Virus record (IMG/VR): IMGVR_UViG_3300029192_000002
Direction: 5' to 3' (one strand)
Length of the DNA stretch: 57,617 nt
Source of the DNA: a virus
Positions 29,220 to 57,617 of this stretch are shown in pieces. A program made the position numbers and the translations under genes. The notes beneath the pieces are model-generated. The model was not told the origin of the DNA. It was given only the letters and a program-made list of their open reading frames with translations, and ran no database searches. The stretch's first letter is position 1, and each line of letters begins with the position of its first letter.

Positions 29220-29705
29220 ATGGAAGAAAGAGTATTATACGGATATATGGATGGTGACTGCCTACAATGTATAGAAATAACCCCCATTCCTCAGAAAATC
29301 AGAAATGAGAAAACGGGGGAAATAATAACACGCATGGTATCGGTTATTGAACAGGTGGCTGAACTGCCAACTATATATAAGCCTGTGGATGCAATAGATG
29401 AAAGTAAACAAAACGCCGATAAAGAGGGTTATGTTGTGCGCATTGTACCATACGATGCAGGGGACAGGATTTCATTCAGATACATAGAAGTCCCCGATTT
29501 TCAAAAGGTGGCACATGAGATTGAACGCTTAAAGGAGGTATTGGCAGGTAGCGATTATAAGATAATCAAATGCTACGAAGCCGCTCTAATAGGTTCTGAA
29601 ATGCCCTATGAGATAAAGGCTTTGCATAATGAAAGGCAGTTGTTGAGAGATAAAATCAATGAACTTGAAGCACGTTATGCCTCATTATATGGTGATACAC
29701 TTTAA
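29220..29705 (+). CDS. Hypothetical protein (161 aa), tail-fibre associated by position
   Basis: Packed ORF after the fibre gene. Confidence 0.5.
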   Translation: MEERVLYGYMDGDCLQCIEITPIPQKIRNEKTGEIITRMVSVIEQVAELPTIYKPVDAIDESKQNADKEGYVVRIVPYDAGDRISFRYIEVPDFQKVAHEIERLKEVLAGSDYKIIKCYEAALIGSEMPYEIKALHNERQLLRDKINELEARYASLYGDTL

Positions 29706-29718
29706 TTATATCTGAAAA

Positions 29719-29751
29719 TGTGTTCATTAAACACATTTATGATTATATTTG
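29719..29751 (+). promoter_or_regulatory. Palindrome TGTGTTC-ATT-AAACACA plus -7 box TATATTTG
   Basis: The motif lies at 29719-29735 and the TAnnTTTG box at 29744-29751, 37 nt before the ATG at 29788. The layout is almost the same as at 53237-53268. Confidence 0.5.
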
Positions 29752-29787
29752 CAGTTAGAAAACTTGATTTAATTTACTCAGTGAATT

Positions 29788-30078
29788 ATGGAAACAACGA
29801 TGTATAGTCTGCGGATTCTTTCCAAAGGCAAGGTTACAGACCTTACCAATGGTTTTGCTTTGGGTGGTGTTCCGTTTACCGTCTTTGTCCGACCTAAAGA
29901 GGTTACGATGGAAACAAGCACGCTGCTTAAATGCAAGCTCATTTGCGATAAGGATTTTGGAATGTTCCCCGTACCTATCGGGGATTGGACGCCCGGAGCG
30001 ATAACCGTAATATCCCCAAACGGTATCGACCTTTCGGAATATGATGTGTATTGGGGTGCTGGTGAAACTATTAAATAA
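29788..30078 (+). CDS. Hypothetical protein (96 aa) upstream of the DGR target
   Basis: ORF behind its own promoter-like element, co-oriented with the DGR target gene. Confidence 0.55.
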   Translation: METTMYSLRILSKGKVTDLTNGFALGGVPFTVFVRPKEVTMETSTLLKCKLICDKDFGMFPVPIGDWTPGAITVISPNGIDLSEYDVYWGAGETIK

Positions 30079-30087
30079 CTTATAGCT

Positions 30088-31449
30088 ATGGGATTATTAT
30101 TGGGAAGCGGAAACACGAAACCGCAATATCCTTACGACCAATGGTATGGGGTGCAAGGTGATTTCAATTCACAGGACTACAAGCTAAAGCGTGTGGGCAA
30201 TTTGGATTTGCACCGTACATTACCCATCCAAGCAAAGCTGAAACGATTTGTGGAAAACCCGGACGGTTCGGTTAAGTATTACCTTAACCAAAATGACAGC
30301 CGTAAAAAGGATTCGGGTGCAACGGCTGTGATTGACAGCACGGATGGTAATGTAATGCTTGAAAAGCCGGAATATTACTTCAAGTTGGAGATAGAGGGGA
30401 CGAAATGGATTCGTGCCTATTCCGAATATCCGTTGCCCGGCTTTATCAAGATGGAACGAAAGACGGTAAGCCCGTGGTATGCAACGGTGGATATTACCAA
30501 CTCTGTAGCCGTATCGGGTTGCTGGCTTACTTGGAATGGCAATGAGATAGCGAGAGATGCCAACGGTTTTGTTGTCCTTAAATCGAATGCCGCACAATTC
30601 AGAGGCGGTTCGGGTGCTGGTGATGCCGCTAAGGATGGCACTTACAACTCCATGTTGGGTATGCCCCGTACTTCCATTTCAAAGGCAGGTGTTCGTCCTT
30701 TCTGCAAGAACGGTACACACCACGGAGCGTACAGGGTGTACAATGAAATTGCTTGGTTGCAACGTGTGGAATACGCTTCTTTGCATTGTCAAGACACTTA
30801 CACCGAAACACTGACCGCTGACGGTTTTCATCAAGGCGGTTTGGGTAGCGGATGTGCTGTTGATGGTGGTCAGTGGAATACATGGGGCGGCTACAGACCG
30901 TTTGTCCCTTGCGGTGTTACTGCAACACTGGGAAACAACACGGGTAAGGTGTCCTACACTATCAAGGGGTGGACTGGGGGCGATAAGGTGGTGCAAGTAA
31001 CCTCTTACCGTGGCTTGGAAACTCCTTATGAATATTTGTGGTTGCTTGCCGATGATGTGCTGGTTTGGCATAAGGCAGATGTATCTATTGCCTATGTGTG
31101 TGAAGACCCGACTAAGTTCACTTCTCACTCTGACGGCGCAACTACCGTACCAACCGGATATGAAGCTATTACTGAACTCCCAAGAACTGATGGATATGTG
31201 CTTTCTATGGCTCATTCCGCTAAGGGCTATTCCTTTGCCGAAAAGGTAGGTGGAGCAAGCAACAAAGGCTATTGCGACTACTTCTATACCTGTGTAGATG
31301 ATTCAGGTTGGAGTACACCGGGATGGTATGGTGCCCTTTTGTCTGCGACTGCGGGTGTTGGTGCGGTTGCGGGTTTCGGTTGTCTGAATACGGGTAGTCG
31401 TTCCTCGTTTGCGTTTGCGTACAATGGGTTCCGCTTGTGCCGATTTTGA
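30088..31449 (+). CDS. DGR variable protein 1 (receptor-binding / tail-fibre-like; C-terminal variable region)
   Basis: 453-aa ORF at the end of the tail module. The last 40 codons (GALLSATAGVGAVAGFGCLNTGSRSSFAFAYNGFRLCRF) are the VR cognate to the TR. Confidence 0.9.
   Translation: MGLLLGSGNTKPQYPYDQWYGVQGDFNSQDYKLKRVGNLDLHRTLPIQAKLKRFVENPDGSVKYYLNQNDSRKKDSGATAVIDSTDGNVMLEKPEYYFKLEIEGTKWIRAYSEYPLPGFIKMERKTVSPWYATVDITNSVAVSGCWLTWNGNEIARDANGFVVLKSNAAQFRGGSGAGDAAKDGTYNSMLGMPRTSISKAGVRPFCKNGTHHGAYRVYNEIAWLQRVEYASLHCQDTYTETLTADGFHQGGLGSGCAVDGGQWNTWGGYRPFVPCGVTATLGNNTGKVSYTIKGWTGGDKVVQVTSYRGLETPYEYLWLLADDVLVWHKADVSIAYVCEDPTKFTSHSDGATTVPTGYEAITELPRTDGYVLSMAHSAKGYSFAEKVGGASNKGYCDYFYTCVDDSGWSTPGWYGALLSATAGVGAVAGFGCLNTGSRSSFAFAYNGFRLCRF
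31329..31436 (+). repeat. DGR variable region 1 (VR1)
   Basis: Aligns without gaps to TR 31529-31636. My hand count gives 16 mismatches, all at positions where the TR has A. Confidence 0.92.
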
Positions 31450-31467
31450 CGGACTGCAAAATTCGGC
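31439..31467 (+). promoter_or_regulatory. Hairpin immediately 3' of VR1, spanning the target stop codon
   Basis: GCCGATTTTG pairs with CAAAATTCGGC (one bulged nt) around an 8-nt loop ACGGACTG. DGR target recognition is known to use a stem-loop just downstream of the VR. Confidence 0.5.
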
Positions 31468-31528
31468 TCACGGAGCAACGAAAAAAGCGTTAGATTGAAA
31501 TATTGAAAAATTATAGGGTCGTGGCGGC

Positions 31529-31636
31529 TGGTGCCCTTTTGTCTGCGAATGCGAATAATGGTGCGAATGCGGGTTTCGGTTATCTGAATACGAATAATCG
31601 TTCCTCGAATGCGAATGCGAACAATGGGTTCCGCTT
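31529..31636 (+). repeat. DGR template repeat (TR)
   Basis: Non-coding copy of the VR. In the VR frame it reads GALLSANANNGANAGFGYLNTNNRSSNANANNGFR, with variable positions carried as AAT/AAC codons. I count 24 adenines. Confidence 0.92.
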
Positions 31637-31778
31637 TTACCGTGGTTTCAACTTATAACTGTTGCTGCCACGTCCTTACCTCACAGGAACTATCGGCACG
31701 TCTGATAGTTGGTAAAATAATACGAATTAGAACGGTGTGAGTAAGAAATTGAAAACTCTGTTTTAGAACAACGGCACA

Positions 31779-32966
31779 ATGGGCTTAGTACAAACAGAAT
31801 ATGGATTATGCTATACGGCTGATACAGGCTTTTATCAATACTCAGATTTTGATGATTGCGGTTTGTATATCGGTGATACAGGCACTCTATTTTGCTCGCA
31901 AGCAAAGAAGATAAAGAATGTCTATCACTTGATATATGAATGTTCTAACATCGTGCTGGCGCAATACAAAGCGCAAAAAGGAAAGGGTGAACGCTCAGAA
32001 ATTACAAAGTTCAATGAGAACATTTTGGAGTATTTGGACGAACTATATTGGAGTTTACGCAACGAAACATATACACCCGGAGAGTATCGGATAAAAATCA
32101 TATATGAGCCTAAAGAGAGGGTGATAATGATTGCCCCTTTCTATCCTGACAGAATTGTACACCACTGCATTATCAATGTGCTTGGGCGGTATTGGACTAA
32201 TTTCTTCATTGCGAATACATACGCTTGCATCAAAGGCAGAGGTATTCATAAGTGTATGGAAGATGTGCATACGGCTTTGGTAACAGACAGGAAAGGAACA
32301 AAATTCTGCCTGAAAATTGATATTAAGAAGTTCTATGATAATATAGACCATTCGGCATTAAAGAAGATAATCAGATATGGCATTGCAGATGAGCAATTGC
32401 TAAGGCTGTTGGATAAGATAATAGATAGTAACGGTAAAGATAAAGGGTTGCCAATAGGCAATTTCACAAGCCAATACTTCGCTAATCTCTATTTGGCATA
32501 CTTTGACCATTGGGTAAAAGAGGTGCTTTCAAAAATAGTTATGCAGCGTTTTGGTGTGAAATTCTACTTCTTCCGCTATATGGATGATATGGTAATATTG
32601 TGCGCTGACAAAGAGGCACTACATTTCATACTTGATATGATGGGGCTTTACTTGGGCGCAGAACTGAAAGTAGAGATAAAAGAAAATTGGCAGATATTCC
32701 CGGTTGATGCTCGTAGCATTGATTATGTGGGATTCAAGCAGAACCATTACGGTATATTGCTGAGAAAAGGCATATTGAAACGGTTTTACAGGAAATTCCA
32801 CCGCACCATCAAGAAATACGAAATCAATGATGAAACTGATATTAAACACCTCTTCCCGTCTGAATATGGCTGGATAATCAGATGCTCAGAGGAACATAGT
32901 AAATTCATTTTTAATAACTGTTTGAATGATGGAATCAAGTGTTTTAACTACAGGATTGCTGGCTAA
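31779..32966 (+). CDS. DGR reverse transcriptase
   Basis: RT motifs appear in order: PKERVIMIAPFYPDRIVHH, LKIDIKKFYDNIDH, GLPIGNFTSQYFANLYL (the IGxxxSQ signature typical of DGR RTs) and FRYMDDMVIL (YxDD). The conserved core begins near residue 40, so the true start may lie downstream of 31779. Confidence 0.92.
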   Translation: MGLVQTEYGLCYTADTGFYQYSDFDDCGLYIGDTGTLFCSQAKKIKNVYHLIYECSNIVLAQYKAQKGKGERSEITKFNENILEYLDELYWSLRNETYTPGEYRIKIIYEPKERVIMIAPFYPDRIVHHCIINVLGRYWTNFFIANTYACIKGRGIHKCMEDVHTALVTDRKGTKFCLKIDIKKFYDNIDHSALKKIIRYGIADEQLLRLLDKIIDSNGKDKGLPIGNFTSQYFANLYLAYFDHWVKEVLSKIVMQRFGVKFYFFRYMDDMVILCADKEALHFILDMMGLYLGAELKVEIKENWQIFPVDARSIDYVGFKQNHYGILLRKGILKRFYRKFHRTIKKYEINDETDIKHLFPSEYGWIIRCSEEHSKFIFNNCLNDGIKCFNYRIAG

Positions 32967-33357
32967 GACCAAGCCGGAAGTTATAGACAATCTTAACAAC
33001 GGTCAAGGTACGTTCCTCTATAACCATAACATTAAAGAGGTCAAGGTTATTGCTGACAAAGAGGGCGGTATTGAAATTACCACTGATGCGGAACGTGCTA
33101 CGGGCACGATGTTCCAATATGATAGCGTGAGGGTGGAATATCCAAAAACGGCTGATAATATTTTCAGTACGTTGCTTACTGCAAGATACCCGGCTAAGAC
33201 AGAAAGCAAGTTGGTAAACGAATATCAGTCTGCCATGCTGGGCTTGCTTGCCGAAAGTGCGAAAGCCCCCTATGAGGACTTTTTGAAAGACCGTTTGGCT
33301 ATCCGTGAAATGGTGGATGCCGATTGTGAAACCTATAACATACCGATGGACTTATGA
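32926..33357 (+). CDS. Hypothetical protein (143 aa)
   Basis: ORF overlapping the RT 3' end by 41 nt. It is acidic and does not look like a four-helix-bundle Avd. Confidence 0.5.
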   Translation: MMESSVLTTGLLAKTKPEVIDNLNNGQGTFLYNHNIKEVKVIADKEGGIEITTDAERATGTMFQYDSVRVEYPKTADNIFSTLLTARYPAKTESKLVNEYQSAMLGLLAESAKAPYEDFLKDRLAIREMVDADCETYNIPMDL

Positions 33358-33734
33358 ACGAAGTAATGGACTTTGAGGAAAGCGAATCCTTAAATGAAGA
33401 TATTTTCGATTGTGAATACACCTCAGTAGATGCCGTGATTAATGAGGTCACGGTGTTTACGGGGTGTAAGGAAAGACAGACAGAGAACGGAACGAGAACA
33501 CTTATCGCCTATGGCGAGGGTATCGGTGCATCCGCTTTCTATACTGATAGTAAGAAGTTGAAAGATGTTGTTTTAGACCCGAAGCGCAAATATCCGTTCC
33601 GTGCCGTTATCAAAGTGGTACGTTATGGAACTATGTACGGGTTTAAGTTCTTTCCACCGAATACTCCAATCACGCAGGAGGATAGAGATAACTTTGAGTA
33701 TTACAAGCGAAACAAGTATAAGAAAAACCGATGA
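33354..33734 (+). CDS. Hypothetical protein (126 aa)
   Basis: ATGA overlap with the upstream gene. Confidence 0.55.
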   Translation: MNEVMDFEESESLNEDIFDCEYTSVDAVINEVTVFTGCKERQTENGTRTLIAYGEGIGASAFYTDSKKLKDVVLDPKRKYPFRAVIKVVRYGTMYGFKFFPPNTPITQEDRDNFEYYKRNKYKKNR

Positions 33735-34330
33735 TGGAAGAAAGTTTGAAAGTGGCACAAGGCATAAGCGATTTTGGCTTTATGGTGATAGTGTGCGCTG
33801 TGTTCCTCTGTTTGGCGGCTGCACTTATGATAGCTTGTTTCAAGTGGTTCAAGTCTATCATTAACGGCATGATTAAAGGCAATCAGTCTATGGTAGCCGA
33901 ACTTCTGACGGAAACCAAGAATCAGAATGATATGCTTACGGATATTGCGGAGGGGTTGCGCCCGGAAACACAGCTAAGGATAAAGAATACTTCGGGTATA
34001 TACTTTGACCTTGCTATAGAAAGGGTGTGCCGGATTATTCGGAAAGTGAGAGAGGAAAACCACATAGCCGACCATGAGGCTACAAAGGCTAAGATACACA
34101 CCTTGATAATGAACTTGCACGAAGATAGGAATAGTAGGTTTGACTACTATACCTATCGGGGAAAACGCTTATCCAGCTACACGTCCCCCGAATGGATTGA
34201 GTGGGTGGAGCAATGCGTATGGAGTGAGGTATATGCTGAAAGTGTGAATAACGGCAGGGCTTATACCAATGTACAGACGGTTTATGACCGTATAAAAATA
34301 GATTTTTACCATAAATTGAATCAAGAATGA
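33731..34330 (+). CDS. Membrane protein, holin candidate (199 aa)
   Basis: Single N-terminal TM segment (FGFMVIVCAVFLCLAAALMIACF), directly upstream of and overlapping the endolysin gene. Confidence 0.4.
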   Translation: MMEESLKVAQGISDFGFMVIVCAVFLCLAAALMIACFKWFKSIINGMIKGNQSMVAELLTETKNQNDMLTDIAEGLRPETQLRIKNTSGIYFDLAIERVCRIIRKVREENHIADHEATKAKIHTLIMNLHEDRNSRFDYYTYRGKRLSSYTSPEWIEWVEQCVWSEVYAESVNNGRAYTNVQTVYDRIKIDFYHKLNQE

Positions 34331-35882: not shown

Positions 35883-35954
35883 GGCTCTGTAGTTCAACGG
35901 ATAGAACAAGAATTTCCTAAATTTTAGATAGGGGTTCGATTCCCCTCGGAGCTA
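35883..35954 (+). tRNA. tRNA-Arg (anticodon CCT)
   Basis: Hand-folded cloverleaf with a 7-bp acceptor stem (two G-T wobbles) and a D arm GTTC/GAAC. The anticodon stem is AGAAT/ATTTT with loop TTCCTAA (U33, CCT, A37). The T arm is AGGGG-TTCGATT-CCCCT and the discriminator is A. No CCA is encoded. Confidence 0.85.
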
Positions 35955-35960
35955 CTTTTC

Positions 35961-36060: not shown

Positions 36061-37383
36061 ATGGCTACATTCAAAGCAGAGGTGTACGCTCACCAAAAGA
36101 GGGCTGACGGCACATATAATATAAAGATAAGGGTTATACACCAAAAGAGGAAAAAGTACATCCCGACCACTTACTACGTGACAAAGGATGATTTGACACG
36201 CACGACTTTCAAGCTGAAAAACCAAAAGTACATAGATGCCACCGATGATATGATAAAAAAATACCGTTCCATTTGTGACCGCATGGGGGAACGGCTTAAA
36301 TCCATGACCGTTGAGCAGGTGGTAGATGCAATCACTAACGACAATGGGGAACACTTCGATTTGGATATAGTGGCTTATGCCCGTCAATATATATCGCACT
36401 TAAAGGAAACCGGGCATACAGGTAATGCGCTTTCTTACCAAGTAGCCATTAACAACCTTGTACGCTTTGTTGGCAGGGATAGCGTGAGCATAAAAGAAAT
36501 CACGGTTAAGTTTATCAATGATTGGATAAAGTGGATAAAGGAGAATCCGGCACGTTCCAAACCCGAAGCCAATCACGGAGAAAGGGCACAGAGCCTATAT
36601 ATATCCCAGCTAAGAGCCATATATAACCGGGCAAAGAAAGAGTTTAACGATGAGGATGCCGGACTGATACGCATTCCCTATTCTCCTTTTAAGAGGGTGG
36701 AAATTCCCAAAATACCCGTTACAAGGAAAAGGGCTATTTCTACGGATTTACTTCGTAAATTTTCGGAACTGCCTTATTCTTTGATTATGCAACCGGGGAC
36801 AAACAGGTACAATCTCGCAAAGGATGTCTTTCTTTTGAGCTTCTGTCTAATTGGAATGAATGCGGTAGATTTGTACACTTGTACGGATTTGAAGAAAGGA
36901 CGTATTATATACCAACGGACAAAAACCAAGAATCGGAGAGCTGACAAAGCGGAAATGTCTGTGAGGATAGAGCCGGAACTAAAAGCCCTTATGAAAAAAT
37001 ATAAAGACCAGACCGGGCAAAGGGTTTTTAATTTCTACAAGCTGTATTCAAGCGTGGATAGCTTTACGGCTGCAATCAACAAGGGCTTGAAAAAGATTGG
37101 TGATGATTTAGGAATAGATGATTTGGAGTTTTACGCAGCCCGCCATACATGGGCAACCATTGCAAGTAATGAAGCCGGAGTAGATAAGTACACCGTTCAC
37201 ACAGCCCTTAACCACGTGGACGAAAATATGAGAGTGACGGATATTTATATTGCGAAATCATGGGATAGTATAGATGCCGCCAACCGTAAAGTATTGGATT
37301 ATGTCAAGCTGTCTTTGGATGATGTAACAGAAAAGAAGTATATACCCAAAAATAAACGTGTTTTGCCTAAGCAAAATTTGTAA
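36061..37383 (+). CDS. int: Tyrosine site-specific integrase (Bacteroidota type with N-terminal arm-binding domain)
   Basis: The N-terminus MATFKAEVYAHQKRADGTYNIKIRVIHQKRKKYIPT is typical of Bacteroides-type integrases. The C-terminal catalytic region has YAARHTWATIA and ALNHVDENMRVTDIYI (H-x-x-R ... H ... Y). Confidence 0.9.
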   Translation: MATFKAEVYAHQKRADGTYNIKIRVIHQKRKKYIPTTYYVTKDDLTRTTFKLKNQKYIDATDDMIKKYRSICDRMGERLKSMTVEQVVDAITNDNGEHFDLDIVAYARQYISHLKETGHTGNALSYQVAINNLVRFVGRDSVSIKEITVKFINDWIKWIKENPARSKPEANHGERAQSLYISQLRAIYNRAKKEFNDEDAGLIRIPYSPFKRVEIPKIPVTRKRAISTDLLRKFSELPYSLIMQPGTNRYNLAKDVFLLSFCLIGMNAVDLYTCTDLKKGRIIYQRTKTKNRRADKAEMSVRIEPELKALMKKYKDQTGQRVFNFYKLYSSVDSFTAAINKGLKKIGDDLGIDDLEFYAARHTWATIASNEAGVDKYTVHTALNHVDENMRVTDIYIAKSWDSIDAANRKVLDYVKLSLDDVTEKKYIPKNKRVLPKQNL

Positions 37384-43436: not shown

Positions 43437-44390
43437 ATGACACAGCAAGCGAGTACGGCAGTACAACAGACTGCAAACGGGGGGCAGGTCGCCACCCAAA
43501 GAAAGCCTGTAGATATTCTTAAAAGCATGATGAGTGCCGAAAGCGTACAAGAACAATTCAAAAATGCGCTTGGTAAAAATTCGGCAACATTCGTAGCCTC
43601 TGTAATTGACCTATACAACGGAGATAGTAATCTGCAACTCTGTAATCCTAAACAGGTGGTAATGGAAGCACTCAAAGCCGCCACGTTACATTTGCCAATA
43701 AACAAGGCTTTGGGCTATGCTTTCATTATCCCGTTCAAAAACTCCAAAAAGGATGAAAAGGGCAACTGGATTAAAGTGTATGAGCCGACTTTTCAAATGG
43801 GCTATAAGGGTTATATTCAACTTGCCATGCGCACGGGGCAATACCGTACCATCAATGCGGATGTGGTGTATGATGGTGAGTTGCGCAAGGTAAACAAACT
43901 GACCGGGGAAATAGCCTTTGACGGTGAAAGGAAAAGCGATAAGGTGATAGGCTATTTCTGTTACTTTGAACTTATGAACGGCTTTAGCAAGACTTTGTAC
44001 ATGACAGTGGAGCAAATGGCAAACCACGCAAAGCGATATAGTAAAGCCATCACAAGCGATAAGGATGTAACGGTAGAAAAGTTGCTGAATTTGGCAAATT
44101 TGCCCGTTTCTCCCGATAGCAACAAGGTTGGCTGGATGGGTAACTTTCACGGAATGGCACAAAAAACCGTTATCCGTAATTTACTGAGTAAATACGGCTA
44201 TTTGTCCGTAGAAATGCAAAATGCCATCACTAACGACTACGAGGGTGACGAAACTTCACAGCGTGATATATTGACCGACAATTACGCAAACAAACAATTG
44301 ATTGATGCGGAAGATGTGAGCTTTGAAAGCGTGTCTGAACACCATACGGGAAGCGAGCAACAAACGGCAACTATTGACCCCGGATATTGA
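43437..44390 (+). CDS. recT: RecT-family single-strand annealing recombinase
   Basis: ...LPINKALGYAFIIPFKN...FQMGYKGYIQLAMRTGQYRTINADVVYDGE... matches the RecT core pattern. Confidence 0.82.
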   Translation: MTQQASTAVQQTANGGQVATQRKPVDILKSMMSAESVQEQFKNALGKNSATFVASVIDLYNGDSNLQLCNPKQVVMEALKAATLHLPINKALGYAFIIPFKNSKKDEKGNWIKVYEPTFQMGYKGYIQLAMRTGQYRTINADVVYDGELRKVNKLTGEIAFDGERKSDKVIGYFCYFELMNGFSKTLYMTVEQMANHAKRYSKAITSDKDVTVEKLLNLANLPVSPDSNKVGWMGNFHGMAQKTVIRNLLSKYGYLSVEMQNAITNDYEGDETSQRDILTDNYANKQLIDAEDVSFESVSEHHTGSEQQTATIDPGY

Positions 44391-44396
44391 TAGCGT

Positions 44397-45125
44397 ATGA
44401 AACTGATAGTTCTTGGTTCAAGTAGTAATGGCAACTGTTACATTTTGGATAACGGTAATGAAGCTCTGATTATAGAGGCTGGAATCCGTTTCCAAGAAGT
44501 CAAGAAAGCATTGGATTTCAATCTGAGAAAGGTTGTAGGGTGTGTGGTGACACACGCCCACAACGACCACGCCAAATATATCAAGGCAATGGTGGATAGT
44601 GGATTTTACACGTTGGCATTGCGGGAGGTATGGACTGCAAAGAGTGTTTGGGATTCTCGTTCTTTAGTGGTTAAAGAGGGCAAAGGCTATAAGATGGGTA
44701 ATTTTAAGGTACTTCCTTTTCCAGCTTGCCATGATGTGCCATGTGTCGGCTATCTGATAGACCACCCCGATATGGGAAAGATGGTATTTCTTACCGATAG
44801 CTGTATGTGCGAATATCAGTTCAAGGGGCTTAACCATGTTCTGATAGAGTGCAATTACTCTGATAAGAAGCTCATCGAGGCGATTACAGCCGGGCGCACG
44901 TTGCCCTCACAGCGTGAACGCCTGCTTACCTCACACATGGAGCTTACTACGTGCAAGGGCTTTTTGGAAGCAAACGACTTATCCCATGTTTCAGAAATCG
45001 TGCTTTTGCACCTTTCCGAGAATAATAGCGATGAGCCTTACTTCATATCGGAAGTGGAAAGGCATACTGGGAAAGTGGTTTATGCGGCAAAGCCGGGTTT
45101 AATGATTGATTTAGATAAGACATAA
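44397..45125 (+). CDS. Metallo-beta-lactamase-fold hydrolase (probable nuclease partner of RecT)
   Basis: HxHxDH motif (VVTHAHNDHAKY), directly downstream of recT. Confidence 0.78.
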   Translation: MKLIVLGSSSNGNCYILDNGNEALIIEAGIRFQEVKKALDFNLRKVVGCVVTHAHNDHAKYIKAMVDSGFYTLALREVWTAKSVWDSRSLVVKEGKGYKMGNFKVLPFPACHDVPCVGYLIDHPDMGKMVFLTDSCMCEYQFKGLNHVLIECNYSDKKLIEAITAGRTLPSQRERLLTSHMELTTCKGFLEANDLSHVSEIVLLHLSENNSDEPYFISEVERHTGKVVYAAKPGLMIDLDKT

Positions 45126-45128
45126 GAA

Positions 45129-45560
45129 ATGGCTAAACTCCAAGTAGAAAAAAGGAACGGGTTATTTGATTTGAAGCCTCTGTATGAGTGGATGCGTAAC
45201 GCTTTGGATGGTATCTATAGGATAGAGGTTAAAAAGGTTAGAAAACCACGTTCTTTAGACCAAAACGGGTGGTTGTTCGGGTGTATTTACCCTATCCTTT
45301 TAGACGCTCTTTTGGAAGCTGGTTGGGAGTTTGTTTCGGTGGAACAAGTACATGAGTTTTTTAAGGCTCAAATGACTGCCGACAAAGTAGTAAACAAGCA
45401 CACTGGGGAAATTATAGAGTTTCCACGTTCAACCGCTACGATGAACACTGTTACATTCTCAACCTATTGTGAAAAGCTGAGGGAGTATGCCAAAGAGTTT
45501 TTGAATGTAGATATTCCCGACCCGGATAAATACTGGAGAAGCCATGAAAAGAATACCTAA
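45129..45560 (+). CDS. NinB-like recombination protein
   Basis: PRSLDQNGWLFGCIYPIL resembles the RSLDQNRKLWA block of lambda NinB. By eye only. Confidence 0.45.
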   Translation: MAKLQVEKRNGLFDLKPLYEWMRNALDGIYRIEVKKVRKPRSLDQNGWLFGCIYPILLDALLEAGWEFVSVEQVHEFFKAQMTADKVVNKHTGEIIEFPRSTATMNTVTFSTYCEKLREYAKEFLNVDIPDPDKYWRSHEKNT

Positions 45561-45691
45561 CAGCGTGGTATCTGAACTGATACGCTTAGTGCCCATTTTG
45601 ATAGCAAATATTCCACCCGGACAAAGTACGAGAGTGGATAACGCAATAAGATTAACAAAAAAGATTATTAACAAATTAAAAACATTGAAAG

Positions 45692-46324
45692 ATGAAAGTA
45701 GAAATTGAAGAAAGCAAGTTGCAAACAGCTTATGCAAACGCTTGTGACGGAGTTAAGGATTTTATGGAAAGCCTGTTTGGGAAAAAGGTGTTTGAGGCTG
45801 CAAAGCCCACGTTGGACGATTACAAGACTATCCGCACGTATGAGGATGCTTGTGAGGCATTGGGAGAAACGCCAATCCTTTCTGAAAACAGAAAAAAAGT
45901 TCTTTGTGCAAAGTTTCCAGACCACTACGATTTTCGGCAAAATATGCCTAATCACATAATAGCCCTTATGAAGTTGGAAACTATTAGCCGGGCTTTGTGG
46001 GGTAGAAATTTCCAACCAAAGCCGGATGGAGAGGGAAGCAAAGTATATTGGTATCCGTGGTTTGCCTTATGGACTAAGAAAGAGGTTGAGGATATGAATC
46101 CCGAACAAAGAGGTGCCCTTTTGTCTGCGAATGCGTTTTTTGGTGCGAGTGCGGGTTTCGGTTATCTGCATACGTATTATCGTTCCTCGTATGCGTCTGC
46201 GTACGGTGGGTTCCGCTTGTGCCAAGAAACGGAAGAAAAGGCTAAGTATTTCGGGCAGCAATTCATTGAACTTTGGGCTGAATATTTGAAATTCAACTTT
46301 TCCGTTGGAAATCGTTTGAAATAA
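45692..46324 (+). CDS. DGR variable protein 2 (210 aa, no signal peptide, in the early module)
   Basis: Residues ...GALLSANAFFGASAGFGYLHTYYRSSYASAYGGFRLCQ... are encoded by a second copy of the TR sequence in the same codon phase. They are followed by a 35-aa C-terminal tail. Confidence 0.85.
   Translation: MKVEIEESKLQTAYANACDGVKDFMESLFGKKVFEAAKPTLDDYKTIRTYEDACEALGETPILSENRKKVLCAKFPDHYDFRQNMPNHIIALMKLETISRALWGRNFQPKPDGEGSKVYWYPWFALWTKKEVEDMNPEQRGALLSANAFFGASAGFGYLHTYYRSSYASAYGGFRLCQETEEKAKYFGQQFIELWAEYLKFNFSVGNRLK
46112..46218 (+). repeat. DGR variable region 2 (VR2), remote from the RT/TR
   Basis: Aligns without gaps to TR 31530-31636. My hand count gives 14 mismatches, all at TR adenines. 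It shares the VR-type 3' junction CCGCTT-GTGCC with VR1; the TR has CCGCTT-TTACC. Confidence 0.9.
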
Positions 46325-46327
46325 AAG

Positions 46328-46344
46328 TGTGTTTGCTAAACATA
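46328..46344. promoter_or_regulatory. 17-bp palindromic site TGTGTTT-GCT-AAACATA
   Basis: Instance of the recurring motif in the 43-nt gap between the VR2 gene and 46368. Confidence 0.4.
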
Positions 46345-46367
46345 TTATTAACTAAAAACAAGGTGAA

Positions 46368-46802
46368 ATGAAAGACATTATGTTAGCCGATACCCCGGTG
46401 GAACAAAGGGCACAGATTCTACGTGATAGCTGCGACCAAATTGTAGAGCGTAGCTATACACGCAAATTCGACCAAGAAGAAATCAACGAAAGGAGGGCAG
46501 ACCTCGCTAACGTGGCGATTCAAAAGGCGGATTTGGAACAATCATTAGCGGAAATCAGAGCCGATTACAAAGGCAAAATCAAGCCTTTGGAAGAACGCAT
46601 AATTAAACTTCGTGACGAACTGAAAGCCGGGGGTGATTGGATTAAGGGCGACTGTTTCAAGTTTGTAGATGAGGATGAGAAAATGGTTGGCTTCTATAGC
46701 CCGGAGGGTTATTTGCTGGAACAACGCCCCATGACACAAGACGAAAGGCAACGTAACGTGTTCCGTGCTATCCGTTCGGATAAAACGGGTACTGACGATT
46801 AA
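46368..46802 (+). CDS. Hypothetical protein (144 aa)
   Basis: Co-oriented early ORF with a coiled-coil middle region. Confidence 0.55.
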   Translation: MKDIMLADTPVEQRAQILRDSCDQIVERSYTRKFDQEEINERRADLANVAIQKADLEQSLAEIRADYKGKIKPLEERIIKLRDELKAGGDWIKGDCFKFVDEDEKMVGFYSPEGYLLEQRPMTQDERQRNVFRAIRSDKTGTDD

Positions 46803-46827: not shown

Positions 46828-47586
46828 ATGGAAAATCAAGAAAAAGGATTAACCGTGAACATCGGTGAGTACAAGGGTGAAAAACCTATCGAAGTAGTGT
46901 ACAGGATTGGTAATGCTTCTAAGGCATTAGACGAATTGCCCATTAAGCAACCGGAAAGTATTTCTGTTTCAGGTGTCATCAGAACTCCGTTGGATTGGTT
47001 GGAAAAGCGTATTGACACCATCGACCAAAAGCGTGCGAATGTTAAGGTAAACCGTGAGAAAATGAGTATCACACTTACCGTGAATGAGGATGATTATTAC
47101 ACCAAAAATACTTTTGTAGGTACGGTGGAACTATCGGAAGTCTTTTCAAAATTCGGTATCAATGATGGAGAACGTGGCTGGAATCCGGCTAAATTGGGGC
47201 AGTTCTTGCGTTTGAATCGTGGTGTATTCATGCAAAAAGAAGATTGTATGAAACTCGTTTCAGTGTTAAAGAACTTCACGGCAAATGCCAAGACTGAAAT
47301 TCAGAAACAACGTGACCCGTCCGGTTCTATGGCTGAGGTGTACCGTTCACAGGTAGAAAGCAATTTGCCCAAGAGTTTCACGATTAATATTGCTATTTTC
47401 AAGGGAACTGCAAAAACACCTATTGAAGTTGAGTTTGACCACTATCTTTCTAATGGTGATGTGTTGTTGCAACTTGTTTCGCCCGGTGCTAACGAACTGG
47501 CAGAGGACTACAGAGATAAGTGTATTGATGAGGTGTTGGATGGTATTCGTGCCATTGCCCCGGACATTGCTATTCTTGAAATCTAA
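46828..47586 (+). CDS. Hypothetical protein (252 aa)
   Basis: Co-oriented early ORF followed by a GC-rich hairpin. Confidence 0.55.
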   Translation: MENQEKGLTVNIGEYKGEKPIEVVYRIGNASKALDELPIKQPESISVSGVIRTPLDWLEKRIDTIDQKRANVKVNREKMSITLTVNEDDYYTKNTFVGTVELSEVFSKFGINDGERGWNPAKLGQFLRLNRGVFMQKEDCMKLVSVLKNFTANAKTEIQKQRDPSGSMAEVYRSQVESNLPKSFTINIAIFKGTAKTPIEVEFDHYLSNGDVLLQLVSPGANELAEDYRDKCIDEVLDGIRAIAPDIAILEI

Positions 47587-47633: not shown

Positions 47634-48449
47634 ATGGCTAATAAGAAAATCATACCGCCTATGCCTTTCGATGCTACCGCTTGGTTATCCAACAATGCGG
47701 CTATGAGGTTGTCATTCGCTTGTAAGGGTTTGTGGCTGGATATGCTTTGCTGTATGTGGGTGAGTATAGAGCGTGGGGTTATGCTGAAACCTATTGGCGG
47801 TGCATACACGGTTGATGAATTGGAAGCCCTTTACGGAAGTGGAACAAAGGAGCTGATAGAATCATTGATTAACGCTGAATTATTGTCTGTAAGACATGAT
47901 GGGGCTTTGTACAACGCTGATATGGTTAAGATGGAATCAATACGGATAAAACGGTCTGAGGCTGGGAAAAAAGGTGGTGTAACGATGGGAAAACGGATAT
48001 TAGCCAAAGTTGATGCGCTTGTGGAAACGCCACCGATAGAAACGCCACATACACCGTCCCCAACGGCTGAAACGCAACAAGGGGCGCAAGCAGACCTATT
48101 CCCCGATGATTTGCCGGAGAATCCACCGCCACTGACTGATGAACAACAGCGGAAGATTAAAAAAGCCAAGAAGTACAATTATGCTGATTACGTTACTTTG
48201 ACACGTGATGAATATGCAAAATTATGTACCGAATATGGCGAAGAAGCCGCTAAAGCGATGATTGATATTCTCAACAATTACAAAGGTTCTAAGGGTAAGA
48301 AGTATAAATCCGATTACCTGACTATTAGGGGCTGGGTAAAAGATAAGTATTACGAAAATATGAATAGATATGGACAACAAACTGGTACAACGGCTGCAAC
48401 AGATATTGGCAAACCAAGCGCAAAGAGGACTTTTAGGGACACGCTTTAA
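47634..48449 (+). CDS. Replication-associated protein (DUF1376/YdaU-like N-terminus)
   Basis: MPFDATAWLSNNAAMRLSFACKGLWLDMLCCMW resembles the DUF1376 opening block. It sits directly upstream of a DnaC-like loader. Confidence 0.45.
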   Translation: MANKKIIPPMPFDATAWLSNNAAMRLSFACKGLWLDMLCCMWVSIERGVMLKPIGGAYTVDELEALYGSGTKELIESLINAELLSVRHDGALYNADMVKMESIRIKRSEAGKKGGVTMGKRILAKVDALVETPPIETPHTPSPTAETQQGAQADLFPDDLPENPPPLTDEQQRKIKKAKKYNYADYVTLTRDEYAKLCTEYGEEAAKAMIDILNNYKGSKGKKYKSDYLTIRGWVKDKYYENMNRYGQQTGTTAATDIGKPSAKRTFRDTL

Positions 48450-49029
48450 GATTGAGAAGTTTCCCGAACAGGACATAGCGGAAATGCTAAGGATGTGTTA
48501 TCAGTCAGAAGTTGAGCGCAGAAACATGAAGTATGTTTCGGATGAAGCCACGTTGGAAAAGATAGGCAAAGCGGCTAAGTTCCTTTGCGGAAACGGAAAG
48601 TTCGGCTTGCTTCTGTATGGTACGGTAGGGAGTGGTAAAACCACGCTTGCAAAGGCGATATGCAACATTATAGGTATCTTGTACAATAGTGATTTATCTT
48701 CCGAAAGAAAGGGAGTGTACCGCATATCAGCTCTGAACCTTGCCAAGTCAATAGCCGATGACCCGACTTATTTCAACAAGCTAAAGAATCAAGAACTTTT
48801 GTTTATTGATGATGTGGGCACTGAACCAGCAAGCGTGAAAAGTTGGGGCAACGAGTTTTCACCGGTTACTGAATTAATCTATGCCCGATATGACAGGCAG
48901 CTATTCACTATAGCCACTTCCAATTTGGCAGATGAGGAATTTGGCGACAGATACGGAGAGCGTATTGCTGATAGGATGGAAGAAATGTTTGAACGGCTGC
49001 ACTACAGTCAAAAAAGCTATCGGAAATGA
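48370..49029 (+). CDS. DnaC/IstB-like AAA+ helicase loader
   Basis: Walker A LLLYGTVGSGKTT and Walker B LLFIDDVG. The start may lie downstream of 48370, which overlaps the previous gene by 80 nt. Confidence 0.75.
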   Translation: MDNKLVQRLQQILANQAQRGLLGTRFKIEKFPEQDIAEMLRMCYQSEVERRNMKYVSDEATLEKIGKAAKFLCGNGKFGLLLYGTVGSGKTTLAKAICNIIGILYNSDLSSERKGVYRISALNLAKSIADDPTYFNKLKNQELLFIDDVGTEPASVKSWGNEFSPVTELIYARYDRQLFTIATSNLADEEFGDRYGERIADRMEEMFERLHYSQKSYRK

Positions 49030-51092: not shown

Positions 51093-52100
51093 ATGAAAAT
51101 TAAAAAGAAGATAGTAGTACCTACAGGCGAAATATATACCGCTATGGGTGAAAAGGGACTGTTGGAGTTCCTTACGGTTGGAGATTATGGCAAGAACGCT
51201 AATATCAAAGCGGACTTCTTGGGGATTACCCGTGATTTGAACGGTGTACCCAATGGCGAGCCAATGCCTCTTACTGAAAAATGGGTGATTACCATTTCCA
51301 CACAGTACGGTTGTTCTATGGGCTGCAAGTTCTGCGATGTTCCCAAAGTGGGTATTGGGAGAAATGCCACTTTTAATGATTTGAAAGAAGAAGCATTAAC
51401 GGCTATCAAGCAACACCCGGAAGTGAAGCACACGAAACGCCTAAACATCCATTATGCACGTATGGGAGAGCCTACATGGAACGCAAATGTACTACTTCAT
51501 GCAATCTGTATAAAGAAAGACATAGAGCCGTTTATAGGCGATTCTTTGGTACACCCGGTTATAAGCACAATGTTGCCAAAGAGAAATAAGAAGCTGGTTG
51601 AGTTCTTGCATAAGTGGTGTTACATAAAGAACGAGTTTTATAAGGGTGATGCCGGACTTCAATTCTCCATCAATACAACGAATGATGAAGAAAGAAATTA
51701 TCTGTTTTCTGGAAGTTCGCTTTCACTTGGTGAAGTTTCAGAAATTGGGAAGTCGCTGCCTATGCCTGTTGGCAGAAAATACGCTTTAAACTTTGCTTTG
51801 GCAGATGATACACATATAGACGGAAAGCGTTTGAGAGAGCTTTTCAACCCCGATAAATTTATGTGTAAGATTACCCCATTGCACCGGACAAATAGCTGTG
51901 ATGAGAACGATTTGCATACAAGCGGAGGCTATGAGCTGTTTACCCCATACAAAGCCGTGGAGGAAGATTTAAAAGACAACGGATTCGATGTTATTGTGTT
52001 TGTTCCCTCTTATGATGAAGATAACGGGCTTATCACGTGTGGGAACGCTATCCTATCCGGGAAAGTTCCTACTTCAAGTTATCAAGAAACAACATATTAA
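51093..52100 (+). CDS. Radical SAM enzyme, RlmN/Cfr-like
   Basis: CxxxCxxC cluster motif in the context ISTQYGCSMGCKFCDVPKVGIGRNATFNDL (compare RlmN VSSQVGCALECKFC...GFNRNL). Also ARMGEP, LQFSINTT, CKITPLH and the C-terminal ITCGNA (compare RlmN AACGQL). Confidence 0.82.
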   Translation: MKIKKKIVVPTGEIYTAMGEKGLLEFLTVGDYGKNANIKADFLGITRDLNGVPNGEPMPLTEKWVITISTQYGCSMGCKFCDVPKVGIGRNATFNDLKEEALTAIKQHPEVKHTKRLNIHYARMGEPTWNANVLLHAICIKKDIEPFIGDSLVHPVISTMLPKRNKKLVEFLHKWCYIKNEFYKGDAGLQFSINTTNDEERNYLFSGSSLSLGEVSEIGKSLPMPVGRKYALNFALADDTHIDGKRLRELFNPDKFMCKITPLHRTNSCDENDLHTSGGYELFTPYKAVEEDLKDNGFDVIVFVPSYDEDNGLITCGNAILSGKVPTSSYQETTY

Positions 52101-53272: not shown

Positions 53273-53737
53273 ATGATTCACCAAGTAAATGATAAAGCTA
53301 TGGGTATGTATATTTTTATCGGATTAACGCTGTTTTTTTTAGCCTTGTTGCTCATGTCTGAGTATATAGGTAGGAACTTTTGGAGGTTTGCCCCAAAAGA
53401 GCATTTGAAGCAAGGGGAAAAGATACACGTTTATGTCAATGGCAAATACGATAGGCACGCAACCATTACGAGTGTGTCCGATGATTCAGTTAGTATCTAT
53501 GGTGCGGTGGCATTGCCCGTTGATTACCGGGGTTCTTTCTATGCCATTGGCAAAGATTCCGTAGGTGCAAAGCTGGTATATGTGAAGTATCGCAGGCGTT
53601 ACCGCTTTGTGAAGCTCTGTGAGCTTCTTAGAAAGGGCTTCTGTGTAGAAGATGATGAGGAACAATTAATGCCGGATTCCCATTCTTCGGAGAATGCCGA
53701 AACCAAAGACGAAACGGAGGTTGAGGATGAAATGTAG
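53273..53737 (+). CDS. Membrane-anchored hypothetical protein (154 aa; start may be 53300 or 53306)
   Basis: N-terminal TM segment (MYIFIGLTLFFLALLLMSEYI). ATG 53273 lies only 5 nt from the -7 box, so an internal Met may be the real start. Confidence 0.45.
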   Translation: MIHQVNDKAMGMYIFIGLTLFFLALLLMSEYIGRNFWRFAPKEHLKQGEKIHVYVNGKYDRHATITSVSDDSVSIYGAVALPVDYRGSFYAIGKDSVGAKLVYVKYRRRYRFVKLCELLRKGFCVEDDEEQLMPDSHSSENAETKDETEVEDEM

Positions 53738-54842
53738 TGAGATTACATACAAGAAAGTTTCGGAGCTGGTTTTGTTGCCTGAAAATCCCCGTACCATTAC
53801 AAAGAATGACTTTGAAAGGTTGGTGGATTCCATAAAGATAAACGGCTTTTGGAAACACCGACCTTTGGCGGTTATGGAGCGTGACGGTAAACTGGTGGTA
53901 TTGGCAGGAAACCAACGTTTAAAGGCTGCAAGGAAGCTGAAACTTGCCGATGTGCCCGTTATCCTTTATTCGGAACTGACCCCGGATGAGGAAAAGGATA
54001 TTATTCTGAGGGATAATATCAACAATGGCGATTGGGATTGCAATGCCTTACAAATGGATGAGTTTTGGAAAGATGTAGATTTTGGCTTTATTGGGCTTGA
54101 TTTTCCATCCGATGATGAGAAGCCCGGAAAGGGTAAGAAGAAAGCGGCTAAAGAGATAGAGGAAACGGAAGCCGAGCAAAACGCAAAGGAAGAAACGGAC
54201 GATGAGGAACAAAGCGAGGAAGAAGCCGAAAAGGAATCTTTCTACCGTTCCATGTTTAAGGACGTTCTTTATGAAAGCGATAACGTCTTTGAGATTCCAA
54301 ACCTCTTACTGGATATGCAAGCCGGGAAAGTAGAATTGCCTTTGTCCCCGTGGGGTGCTAACAGCCGTTTGCGTAAAGATGTGGCAACGTATCATTTCTA
54401 TGTGGATGATTATCGCTTTGAGACTCTTTTCAAAGACCCGATAAATTTGCTCACAAGCGGATGCAAGGCAGTGGTAGAGCCGAATTGTAGCTGCCACGAC
54501 CAAACACCTGTAGCGTGGGGCATTCAGCTTATCTACAAGAAACGCTGGCTTTCCCGTTACTTCCAAGAATGCGGAATCAAGGTTTATGCTGACTTGAATG
54601 TTTCTCACAAGTTTATTGAGTACAACAAAATGGGTATTCCCAAAGGATATAATGCTTTCTTTACCCGTGGGCTGGACGGTTGGATGGAAAGCCTTAAATC
54701 TGATTTGCAAGTAGCCCAAGAAATAAGCGGGCTTGAAAAACCAAACCTTATCGTTTACGGTGGGGGTACGGAAATTCAGAAGTTCTGCCGTGAACATGGG
54801 CTGTTGTACGTCACAGATTTTATTAACGCAAAAAAGAAGTAA
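53727..54842 (+). CDS. ParB N-terminal domain protein fused to a DUF4417-like domain
   Basis: LLPENPRTITKNDFERLVDSI...VLAGNQRLKAARKL is a ParB/Srx-like box. The C-terminal half has ATYHFYVDDYRFETLFKDP, as I recall for DUF4417. Start is trimmed to the ATG at 53727. Confidence 0.6.
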   Translation: MKCSEITYKKVSELVLLPENPRTITKNDFERLVDSIKINGFWKHRPLAVMERDGKLVVLAGNQRLKAARKLKLADVPVILYSELTPDEEKDIILRDNINNGDWDCNALQMDEFWKDVDFGFIGLDFPSDDEKPGKGKKKAAKEIEETEAEQNAKEETDDEEQSEEEAEKESFYRSMFKDVLYESDNVFEIPNLLLDMQAGKVELPLSPWGANSRLRKDVATYHFYVDDYRFETLFKDPINLLTSGCKAVVEPNCSCHDQTPVAWGIQLIYKKRWLSRYFQECGIKVYADLNVSHKFIEYNKMGIPKGYNAFFTRGLDGWMESLKSDLQVAQEISGLEKPNLIVYGGGTEIQKFCREHGLLYVTDFINAKKK

Positions 54843-56299: not shown

Positions 56300-57617
56300 G
56301 GTTACAGACGTGCCGATGGCACTTGCAGTGAAGATTGAGCTTTTCAAGCGTGGTTGTTTCGACTTCATTACCGTAAAGGATGGTTTGAAGCATGAGAAGC
56401 AAGAACACGCTTTGAAGATACTTACCGACAATGAACACGTTGAACTTTTGTACGGAGGTGCTGCCGGGGGTGCAAAATCATGGACGGGGGCGGTGTGGCT
56501 TCTGTTTATGTGCCTCTGTTATCCCGGTTCAAAGTGGTTTATCGGACGTGCCGAGTTAAAGCGTATCACACAATCTACACTTATCACATTTTACAAGGTT
56601 TGCAATCAGTATGGGGTTGATGACACCTTGTATAAGTATAACGGGCAATACAATTATATCGAATTTTTCAATGGTTCACGTATTGACTTGCTGGACTTGC
56701 AATATAAGCCGGGCGACCCTCTGTATGAGCGTTACGGCTCAATCGAATATACAGGTGGATGGATTGAAGAGGGTGGCGAAGTGAACTTCGGTGCATACGA
56801 CACCCTTAAAACCCGTATCGGGCGACACCTTAACAATGAATTGGGGTTGAGGCGAAAACTATTCATTACTTGCAATCCTAAAAAGAACTGGATGTACGAT
56901 ACATTCTACAAGCCGGATAAGAAAGGGGAATTACCCGAATATATGTACTACCTTGCTTGCCTTGTACAAGAAAACCCATTCATAGACCCCGATTATATAG
57001 AGGGTTTGAAAACTACAAAGGATAAGGTAAAGCGTGAACGTCTTTTGAAAGGTAATTGGGAGTATGACGATAACCCCAACGCCCTTTGCTCACATGATGC
57101 AATCTGTGAGATATTCGGGAATAAGATTTCAATCAAGACAGGTACAAACTATATCACGGGGGACGTTGCACGTTTTGGAGCTGACTATGCCCGTCTTGCC
57201 GTTTGGGATGGTTGGCATATCATAGAGCTACAATGTTTCCCCGTGTCTAAGACTACCGACATTCAGACGTGGATAATCAACAAGCAAAAGAAGTACAGAA
57301 TACCCAACCATAAATGTATCGTTGATGAGGACGGTGTAGGCGGTGGTGTGGTGGATAATTGCGACATTCAGGGCTTCGTGAACAACTCTACGCCTTTCAA
57401 TGGTGAGAACTACCAAAACCTACAGACCCAATGCGGCTACAAGCTGGCAGACCGCATAAACGCTACGGAAGTGGGGATAGATGAGGATTTGATAAGCACT
57501 GCCGATAAGGAAGAAATCATAAGGGAGCTGGAACAACTGCAAACATGGAAAGCTGATTCGGACGGTAAACTAAAGTTGAAGCCCAAAGAAGAAATCAAGA
57601 TGGATATTGGTTGTTCC
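56286..57617 (+). CDS. terL: Terminase large subunit (N-terminal 444 codons; continues at nt 1-198)
   Basis: My translation from the ATG at 56286 is MARSKVTDVPMALAVKIELFKRG...ELLYGGAAGGAKSWTG, with a Walker A. The ORF is open to the end of the window and in phase with nt 1-198. It is absent from the ORF track because there is no stop in the window. Confidence 0.9.
   Translation, partial: MARSKVTDVPMALAVKIELFKRGCFDFITVKDGLKHEKQEHALKILTDNEHVELLYGGAAGGAKSWTGAVWLLFMCLCYPGSKWFIGRAELKRITQSTLITFYKVCNQYGVDDTLYKYNGQYNYIEFFNGSRIDLLDLQYKPGDPLYERYGSIEYTGGWIEEGGEVNFGAYDTLKTRIGRHLNNELGLRRKLFITCNPKKNWMYDTFYKPDKKGELPEYMYYLACLVQENPFIDPDYIEGLKTTKDKVKRERLLKGNWEYDDNPNALCSHDAICEIFGNKISIKTGTNYITGDVARFGADYARLAVWDGWHIIELQCFPVSKTTDIQTWIINKQKKYRIPNHKCIVDEDGVGGGVVDNCDIQGFVNNSTPFNGENYQNLQTQCGYKLADRINATEVGIDEDLISTADKEEIIRELEQLQTWKADSDGKLKLKPKEEIKMDIGCS
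57519..57617 (+). repeat. 99-bp terminal overlap with nt 1-99 (circular closure of the contig)
   Basis: Exact identity by inspection, lying inside and in frame with terL. Confidence 0.95.

Follow-up and report, generated by a model that had tools for sequence, protein, structure and literature searches.

The virus record IMGVR_UViG_3300029192_000002 of IMG/VR, a stretch of 57,617 nucleotides that is analysed here over its full length and called the window, carries a diversity-generating retroelement (DGR) with one template repeat (TR), one reverse transcriptase (RT) and, next to this cassette, a variable region at the 3' end of a tail-module gene (VR1). A second variable region (VR2) is found far away from the cassette, in the C-terminal part of a protein of 210 aa that is encoded between recombination and replication genes. 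Very probably, VR2 is a real and active second target of the single DGR of this phage, which is not only remote from the RT but also non-structural.

The remote variable region and its diversification

The 107-nt TR, 24 nucleotides of which are A, was scanned ungapped over both strands of the whole window, and only two further copies were found, at 46112 (VR2, 93/107 identical) and at 31330 (VR1, 91/107 identical), with the next best placement reaching 48/107. The 14 mismatches of VR2 all fall on adenines of the TR, as do 16/16 mismatches of VR1; for 14 randomly placed mismatches, the probability that every one of them hits an A is P=1.6e-11. A first-pass annotation, which had reported a gap-free TR copy with 14 adenine-located mismatches at 46112-46218, is borne out by the ungapped alignment down to each substitution that it listed. 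Equally, VR2 shares the codon phase of VR1 as had been read, both repeats being in phase 0 of their own open reading frame (ORF) with the changes at positions 1-2 of AAY codons, and it ends on the junction CCGCTT-GTGCC, which is common to both variable regions, versus CCGCTT-TTACC in the TR. The GTGCC junction is kept in 35/35 VR2 alleles of other contigs. VR2 ends at residue 176 and is followed by a tail of 34 residues, and not of 35 as initially counted; on the other hand, the proposed absence of a signal peptide and a transmembrane segment stands, as neither a hydrophobic N-terminus nor a transmembrane segment is found in the 210-aa protein, where the maximal Kyte-Doolittle mean over 19 residues is 1.09 and lies inside the variable region.

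The remoteness of VR2 requires a qualification. Since a 99-nt exact direct repeat is present at both ends of the window (1-99 = 57519-57617), the window is a circularly closed phage genome of ~57.5 kb. The 14.5 kb by which VR2 had been said to be separated from the RT consequently hold for one arc of the circle, with 14.6 kb between TR and VR2, whereas 43 kb separate the two via the other arc, which is the layout in the integrated prophage.

The closest phage is Bacteroides phage Versailles (ON453897.1), which is 94% identical to the window and of whose prophage gene order the gene order of the window is a permutation. B. caecimuris harbours Versailles as a prophage that can be induced, and the paper describing it (PMC10197239) makes no mention of a DGR. 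When the variable regions of Versailles are compared with the Versailles TR, all mismatches are again at A (14/14 and 11/11). Three substitutions (G>T, A>G, A>T) separate the Versailles TR from that of the window, and both Versailles variable regions hold the Versailles base at all three, while at the non-adenine difference both window variable regions hold the G of the window. As the variable regions of each phage carry the private bases of their own TR, the pattern bears the signature of a directional transfer from the TR to both variable regions that postdates the split of the window and Versailles lineages. In the Versailles ortholog of the 210-aa gene, the 3' two-thirds are ~99% identical to the window except for VR2, in which 18/107 positions differ. 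The first ~85 codons of the gene (45692-45960 of the window compared with L001 7678-7900 of Versailles) are strongly diverged and contain indels; as the remaining gene and its flanks are 97-99% identical, a sharp mosaic boundary arises, which suggests an exchange of N-terminal modules.

Diversification is also evident on a population scale. A protein search yielded 3388 clusters at 90% identity, the best 120 of which are all 210 aa in length and 92-96% identical to the window protein. High-entropy sites in the resulting alignment of 121 proteins are restricted to residues 147, 149, 150, 153, 158, 160, 162, 163, 167, 169, 171 and 172, with 6-15 residue types at each, and coincide precisely with the AAT/AAC/TAT codons of the TR; two alleles occur at residue 161, and nearly all remaining positions are invariant. 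On the DNA level, 35/35 VR2 alleles recovered from IMG/VR and GTDB contigs are mutually distinct. In close relatives VR2 differs from the TR at A sites, in addition to a TR polymorphism at index 17, which recurs in the VR2 of related contigs, and few isolated changes. The comparison across related genomes that the first-pass annotation had called for thus finds the variation confined to A-derived codons among the 121 proteins and nearly all at A among the alleles of close relatives. At the level of the sequences, these data show that transfer to VR1 and VR2 has been repeated and recent and that both are rewritten in nature. As to the diversity of VR1, a single 90% cluster of its 453-aa host protein comprises 36,228 member sequences; VR2 is as diversified as VR1 though it is without a counterpart of the hairpin that follows VR1. 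The IMG/VR relatives L003-L011 show only 77-84% overall identity to the window protein.

Hybrid repeats of VR2 and TR were observed in contigs from several samples (L033 6614-6720, L034 5485-5591, L036 1147-1253 and L070 137-243), in which the 5' part of the target gene leads into a VR2/TR hybrid followed by the 3' flank of the TR and the RT. Most likely, the assembler jumped from one repeat copy to the other in these contigs, genuine recombination between VR2 and the TR being a less likely source.

The target family and its relatives in known systems

The 210-aa protein belongs over its full length to phrog_11581 (E=4e-79, residues 2-208), a family annotated as of unknown function. No match for it was found in Pfam, NCBIfam and the PDB sequences, searches of the PDB with the family profile and with phmmer were equally empty, and Pfam applied to 78 family members and to longer fusion members returned nothing usable, with no match to a lectin or a formylglycine-generating enzyme (FGE) domain. 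The family is large, comprising 517 clusters at 50% identity in a HMMER search of 1.84 billion representatives; among the 150 family representatives listed, the majority have a length of 185-215 aa and cover the greater part of the query at 30-60% identity. From the N- to the C-terminus, the conserved motifs are R-I-K-T-F-E-D-A-C..LG, IAY.KLRII.AALNEGW.P.F and YPWF.LYT, after which follow a segment of ~35 residues rich in A/G/S/Y/N, the motif G-S-R-L-C and a conserved helical tail, ELA.Y.GKQFI.LWADY. In each of three subfamilies, which share 68%, 46% and 35% identity with the window protein, hypervariability is restricted to the VR-equivalent segment, which makes targeting by a DGR a family-wide property. 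Deviating architectures occur as well: P0162 (305 aa) and P0266 (286 aa) contain the core domain in tandem duplicate with a much shorter YPWF-GSRLC segment, and P0255, P0261, P0259, P0208 and P0128 possess N-terminal extensions without a Pfam match.

The location of the gene between RecT/MBL/NinB and the replication genes, outside of the tail module, had been recognized correctly and is conserved well beyond the window. About 65 IMG/VR loci keep the order SbcC-like ATPase, RecT, metallo-beta-lactamase (MBL)-fold hydrolase, NinB, target, phrog_12688, DUF2303-like protein, replisome organizer and DnaC-like loader, and this synteny persists with neighbours at 45-75% identity. An RT within 10 kb of the family gene is absent from all loci with the exception of the VR2/TR chimeric contigs. 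Also distant family members are without an RT within 10 kb; their neighbours are helicase, MazG, RtcB and DNA methyltransferases, and in one case (L115 9998-11771) MazG is located directly upstream and the RtcB tRNA ligase directly downstream. The hosts of related prophages are Bacteroides, Phocaeicola, Parabacteroides, Alistipes, Segatella and rumen Bacteroidales.

The first-pass annotation overstated how unusual such a target is, as distal non-structural targets have been reported before (PMC8008677; PMC12629997). In Quimbyvirus, a second, distal, 'non-structural' DGR target with a reported C-type lectin domain has been described (Benler et al. 2021, PMC8008677). When the phages in GenBank were searched by tblastn with the window protein, the LoVEphage group (MW660583.1 and relatives, BI-TP1, PV4-TP1) was the sole source of homologs besides Versailles, its homologs showing 33-35% identity over residues 2-199 (~195 aa). 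LoVEphage harbours three copies of its own repeat, an A-rich TR by a split RT, a variable region in a 'tail collar fiber' gene and a variable region in the homolog QVQ57199.1, and its variable regions differ from its TR only at adenines; the homolog is encoded on the strand opposite to the cassette and the structural genes. The neighbours of QVQ57199.1, a C5 methyltransferase, Dam methyltransferases, RtcB and an MmcB-like nuclease, constitute the neighbourhood described for the non-structural target of Quimbyvirus (PMC8008677), and Quimbyvirus and LoVEphage each match the same B. dorei prophage (CP011531.1) with ~95%. Based on this neighbourhood and the shared prophage match, the window protein is a homolog of the published distal target. 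RtcB, which is found ~5 kb from the LoVEphage homolog, recurs next to the distant member mentioned above, a recurrent tie to genes for tRNA repair and nucleotide signalling.

The LoVEphage/Quimbyvirus systems resemble the window in the C-terminal position of the variable region, a VR1 in the tail module, a single TR, a target that is separated from the RT by more than 10 kb and located in a non-structural region, and a temperate gut Bacteroidales phage as carrier. They differ from it in a genome of ~71-75 kb and an RT that is broken up into several frames, as compared to 57.5 kb and an intact RT, and in the TR sequence of LoVEphage. Furthermore, the LoVEphage target is located on the strand opposite to the cassette among methyltransferases, RtcB and nuclease, whereas the window target shares the strand of its cassette and is flanked by NinB and the replication genes, and the C-type lectin domain reported for the Quimbyvirus target was not reproduced here for the window protein. 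Equally, four gut prophage species with a second variable region distal to the RT have been presented (Dahlman et al. 2025, PMC12629997, Extended Data Fig. 3c). These phages are like the window inducible Bacteroidota prophages with two variable regions, the second far from the RT, but the immediate neighbours of the VR2 gene of the window are recombination and replication genes, unlike the description given for them. One phage in this work, 'Bacteroides phage Shia' (56.7-58.0 kb, two variable regions, RT, integrase, no Avd listed; PMC12629997, Table S3), is similar to the window in size and gene content, from which it is probably of the same lineage.

Other well-known systems are more distant in organization. 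The DGR of BPP-1 (Mtd/Avd/TR/Brt) has adenine mutagenesis, a variable region in the 3' part of the ORF, AAY codons, a 3' junction that separates the variable region from the TR and a hairpin, as found in the window after VR1, in common with the DGR of the window; however, it possesses Avd and one target, the tail-fibre tip protein, beside the cassette, whereas the window has a second, non-structural target, no recognized Avd and no hairpin at VR2. Phage DGRs with two tentaclin targets (PMC10743442) equally combine one TR with two target genes in gut phages, but both targets reside in the cassette and are read as receptor-binding proteins with C-type lectin domains, neither of them remote or part of a block of early genes. 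Among cellular DGR targets, those that lack export signals, namely sensors of cyanobacteria and multicellular bacteria (via PMC8008677, PMC12629997), share with the window protein a presumed intracellular location; they are large multidomain proteins with kinase/NTPase fusions, in contrast to a stand-alone protein of ~200 aa with no recognized effector domain.

Genome, cassette and neighbouring genes

The coordinates of the features are collected in Table 1. IGxxxSQ-type and YMDD motifs are marks of DGR RTs, and both are displayed by the RT of the window. In a scan of the RT against NCBIfam, which is without a DGR-specific model, the best matches (group II intron, Drt) stayed below their cut-offs. 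The 453-aa host protein of VR1 matches phrog_5302, annotated as 'tail protein', with E=2e-122, and the DNA downstream of VR1 (31425-31500) folds with -13.4 kcal/mol (z=-1.95).

Table 1. Features of the DGR, its two targets and the genes around the remote target (positions in the window)
Feature	Position	Strand	Description
TR	31530-31636	+	Master sequence, rich in A and with AAY codons; lies 142 nt 5' of the RT gene
DGR RT	31779-32966	+	Pfam RVT_1 E=5e-17; IGNFTSQ and YMDD motifs
VR1	31330-31436	+	3' end of tail-module gene 30088-31449 (453 aa); 91/107 identical to TR
Imperfect hairpin	31439-31467	+	10-11 bp, GCCGATTTTG...CAAAATTCGGC, just 3' of VR1
Target gene 2	45692-46324	+	210 aa, predicted soluble; full-length phrog_11581 member
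VR2	46112-46218	+	Codons 141-176 of the 210-aa ORF; 93/107 identical to TR, gap-free
VR-type 3' junction GTGCC	46219-46223	+	Candidate end of an element like the initiation of mutagenic homing (IMH) sequence, putative function
RecT	43437-44390	+	Pfam RecT E=9e-40; upstream of target
MBL-fold hydrolase	44397-45125	+	Pfam Lactamase_B; upstream of target
NinB/Orf	45129-45560	+	phrog_72; upstream of target
phrog_12688	46368-46802	+	PHROG match; downstream of target
phrog_11501/DUF2303-like	46828-47586	+	PHROG/Pfam match; downstream of target
Replisome organizer	47634-48449	+	PHROG/Pfam match; downstream of target
DnaC-like loader	48370-49029	+	PHROG/Pfam match; downstream of target

No Bacteroides-type -7 motif (TAnnTTTG) is present in 45000-46400, which is consistent with co-transcription of the target within an operon, though as weak evidence. 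A gene for tRNA-Arg(CCT) (35883-35955, +) is located just upstream of the gene for a tyrosine integrase (36061-37383; Phage_int_SAM_5 / Phage_integrase). As the two genes adjoin, the phage attachment site attP is suggested to overlap the tRNA gene, with integration into the host tRNA-Arg. The early region encodes in addition a radical-SAM protein as well as a protein that combines ParB_N and DUF4417 (51093-52100 and 53694-54842; the latter protein is annotated as 'nuclease' in Versailles), and for these genes, situated a few kb from the target, roles in DNA modification or counter-defence are possible.

Readings of the target and their meaning

Following the established DGR pathway, the TR would be transcribed and copied into cDNA by the adjacent RT with misincorporation opposite adenines. 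The cDNA would then replace homologous sequence at both sites with a VR-type 3' junction, in the tail-module gene by the cassette and in the 210-aa gene 14.6 kb off (43 kb in the prophage). In the 210-aa protein the scaffold remains constant, and ~13 residues in a C-terminal segment of ~35 residues are randomised. With respect to function, the most likely reading, which comes close to an even chance, is that the target works within the infected cell, where it would bind a ligand as a variable protein; in many Bacteroidales phages its gene is part of the recombination/replication block, on one strand with it, and in none does it lie in a structural module. The ligand might be a factor of the host or one of its defence proteins, as the first-pass annotation had proposed, or a competing element. 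More tentatively, and with a somewhat lower probability, the whole family might represent a DGR-randomised intracellular recognition module comparable to a small cytoplasmic antibody, which would be co-diversified with the receptor-binding protein of the tail.

Several observations weigh against such an intracellular, actively diversified binder. The terms 'early' and 'intracellular' are derived from gene position and the absent hydrophobic N-terminus, and the ligand-binding surface on the VR domain is assumed by analogy. Two AlphaFold2 models were built from alignments of 78 and 100 sequences, with a mean predicted local distance difference test score (pLDDT) of 77.5 for the window protein and of 84.2 for the family member P0192, the scaffold of which is above 90; in both, the scaffold is mostly helical and the variable region has a pLDDT <50, leaving about a quarter of the domain unmodelled. 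Foldseek searches of the PDB with both models gave no match (best E ~3). The stretch downstream of VR2 (46219-46282) folds no better than shuffled sequences (z=+0.17) and no inverted repeat was found there; with no hairpin after VR2, its homing efficiency may differ from that of VR1. An Avd/HRDC accessory gene was not recognized by Pfam, PHROG function or NCBIfam among the scanned ORFs of 29220-34330, where the small ORFs nearest to the cassette are acidic (isoelectric point 4.7-5.6) and match only PHROGs of unknown function. Finally, VR1 and VR2 resemble each other in their residue spectra, in a comparison that covers 18 VR1 alleles only, and this gives no sign of a distinct class of ligand.

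With regard to the fold, a search of BFVD with Foldseek found uncharacterised phage proteins only, including crAss-like ones. The motifs R-I-K-T-x-E-D-A, YPWF and GxRLC are reminiscent of FGE-type lectin domains, which serves as a lead. Given the unmodelled quarter of the domain and the C-type lectin domain reported for the homolog (PMC8008677), a C-type lectin fold is possible. As a secondary possibility, the predicted helical scaffold without a match in the PDB might be a DGR display fold that is neither a C-type lectin nor an immunoglobulin domain.

Alternatively, the 210-aa protein could be an accessory adhesin or tail decoration that is associated with the virion, encoded outside of the structural module and diversified together with the tail protein for adsorption. 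The similar residue spectra of the two variable regions would fit this explanation, as would the predominance of receptor-binding proteins among the phage DGR targets known so far (PMC8144416). Equally, the sole likeness of the 210-aa protein to an annotated protein is to the tail-module family phrog_5302 (E=5e-8), and the Versailles ortholog (ON453897.1 10181-10762, WAK79127.1) is labelled 'tail protein' in GenBank. However, the match to phrog_5302 covers residues 131-178 only and reflects the shared variable region, with no homology to structural families. The sharing of this region with phrog_5302 also explains the GenBank label, which on the basis of the sequences is probably an artefact. 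The position of the gene in the same-strand recombination/replication block at ~65 loci, its place among DNA-metabolism and counter-defence genes in other lineages and the orientation of the LoVEphage homolog, opposite to the structural genes, further argue against a virion protein, which is considered unlikely.

Still much less probable is an origin of VR2 as a relic or as an off-target that is tolerated, for which part of the VR1 gene end would have been copied into an unrelated early gene and would now be overwritten passively by the DGR, without a selected function. That VR1 and VR2 share the repeat only, with unrelated flanks, and that a hairpin is missing downstream of VR2 would be in agreement with such an origin. 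On the other hand, the VR-bearing architecture is kept across the 517 clusters, including lineages with a different TR such as LoVEphage, and reading frame and AAY phasing are preserved. Outside of the variable region, a ratio of nonsynonymous to synonymous substitutions (dN/dS) of 0.09-0.2 indicates purifying selection on the scaffold including the 34-residue tail, and no relative found has a disrupted target ORF. Decay of a duplicated VR1 gene end, which the first-pass annotation had named as an outcome that would speak against its proposal, is rejected, since the BLASTP likeness to the VR1 protein is limited to the variable region and the rest of the protein is under selection. Assembly artefact or chance similarity as the source of the repeat is of negligible probability and was rejected: assemblers do jump here, as the VR2-to-TR chimeras L033, L034, L036 and L070 demonstrate, but the same VR2 is found in the same gene of the isolate-derived Versailles genome and in dozens of independent contigs and bacterial genomes, and the adenine-only pattern has a P of ~1e-11.

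What is known already are distal non-structural DGR targets in gut Bacteroidota phages, to which the window adds a different phage lineage and a different neighbourhood. Added here is also that such distal targets form one large conserved family with family-wide targeting, together with the evidence for a concerted transfer from the TR to VR2. The family is common to at least two unrelated and highly prevalent lineages of gut phages, the Versailles-like phages and LoVEphage/Quimbyvirus, and is extremely diverse in metagenomes. A global DGR survey was unable to detect remote targets (Roux et al. 2021, PMC8144416), and since its genes invariably lie far from the RT, the family escapes large surveys that are confined to the vicinity of the RT. 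Cultured systems exist with Versailles, a prophage of B. caecimuris in the OMM12 model community, and the related BI-TP1 and PV4-TP1.

Phage DGRs are usually explained as tools for receptor switching. A second, constantly rewritten target that is not part of the virion implies that another interface between phage and host is under the same rapid, frequency-dependent pressure. If the family indeed represents an intracellular recognition module, one mutagenic system would adapt adsorption as well as an intracellular step, be it the neutralisation of a defence or the capture of a host replication or recombination factor, and this would help to explain the replication of such DGR phages across Bacteroides species and genera.

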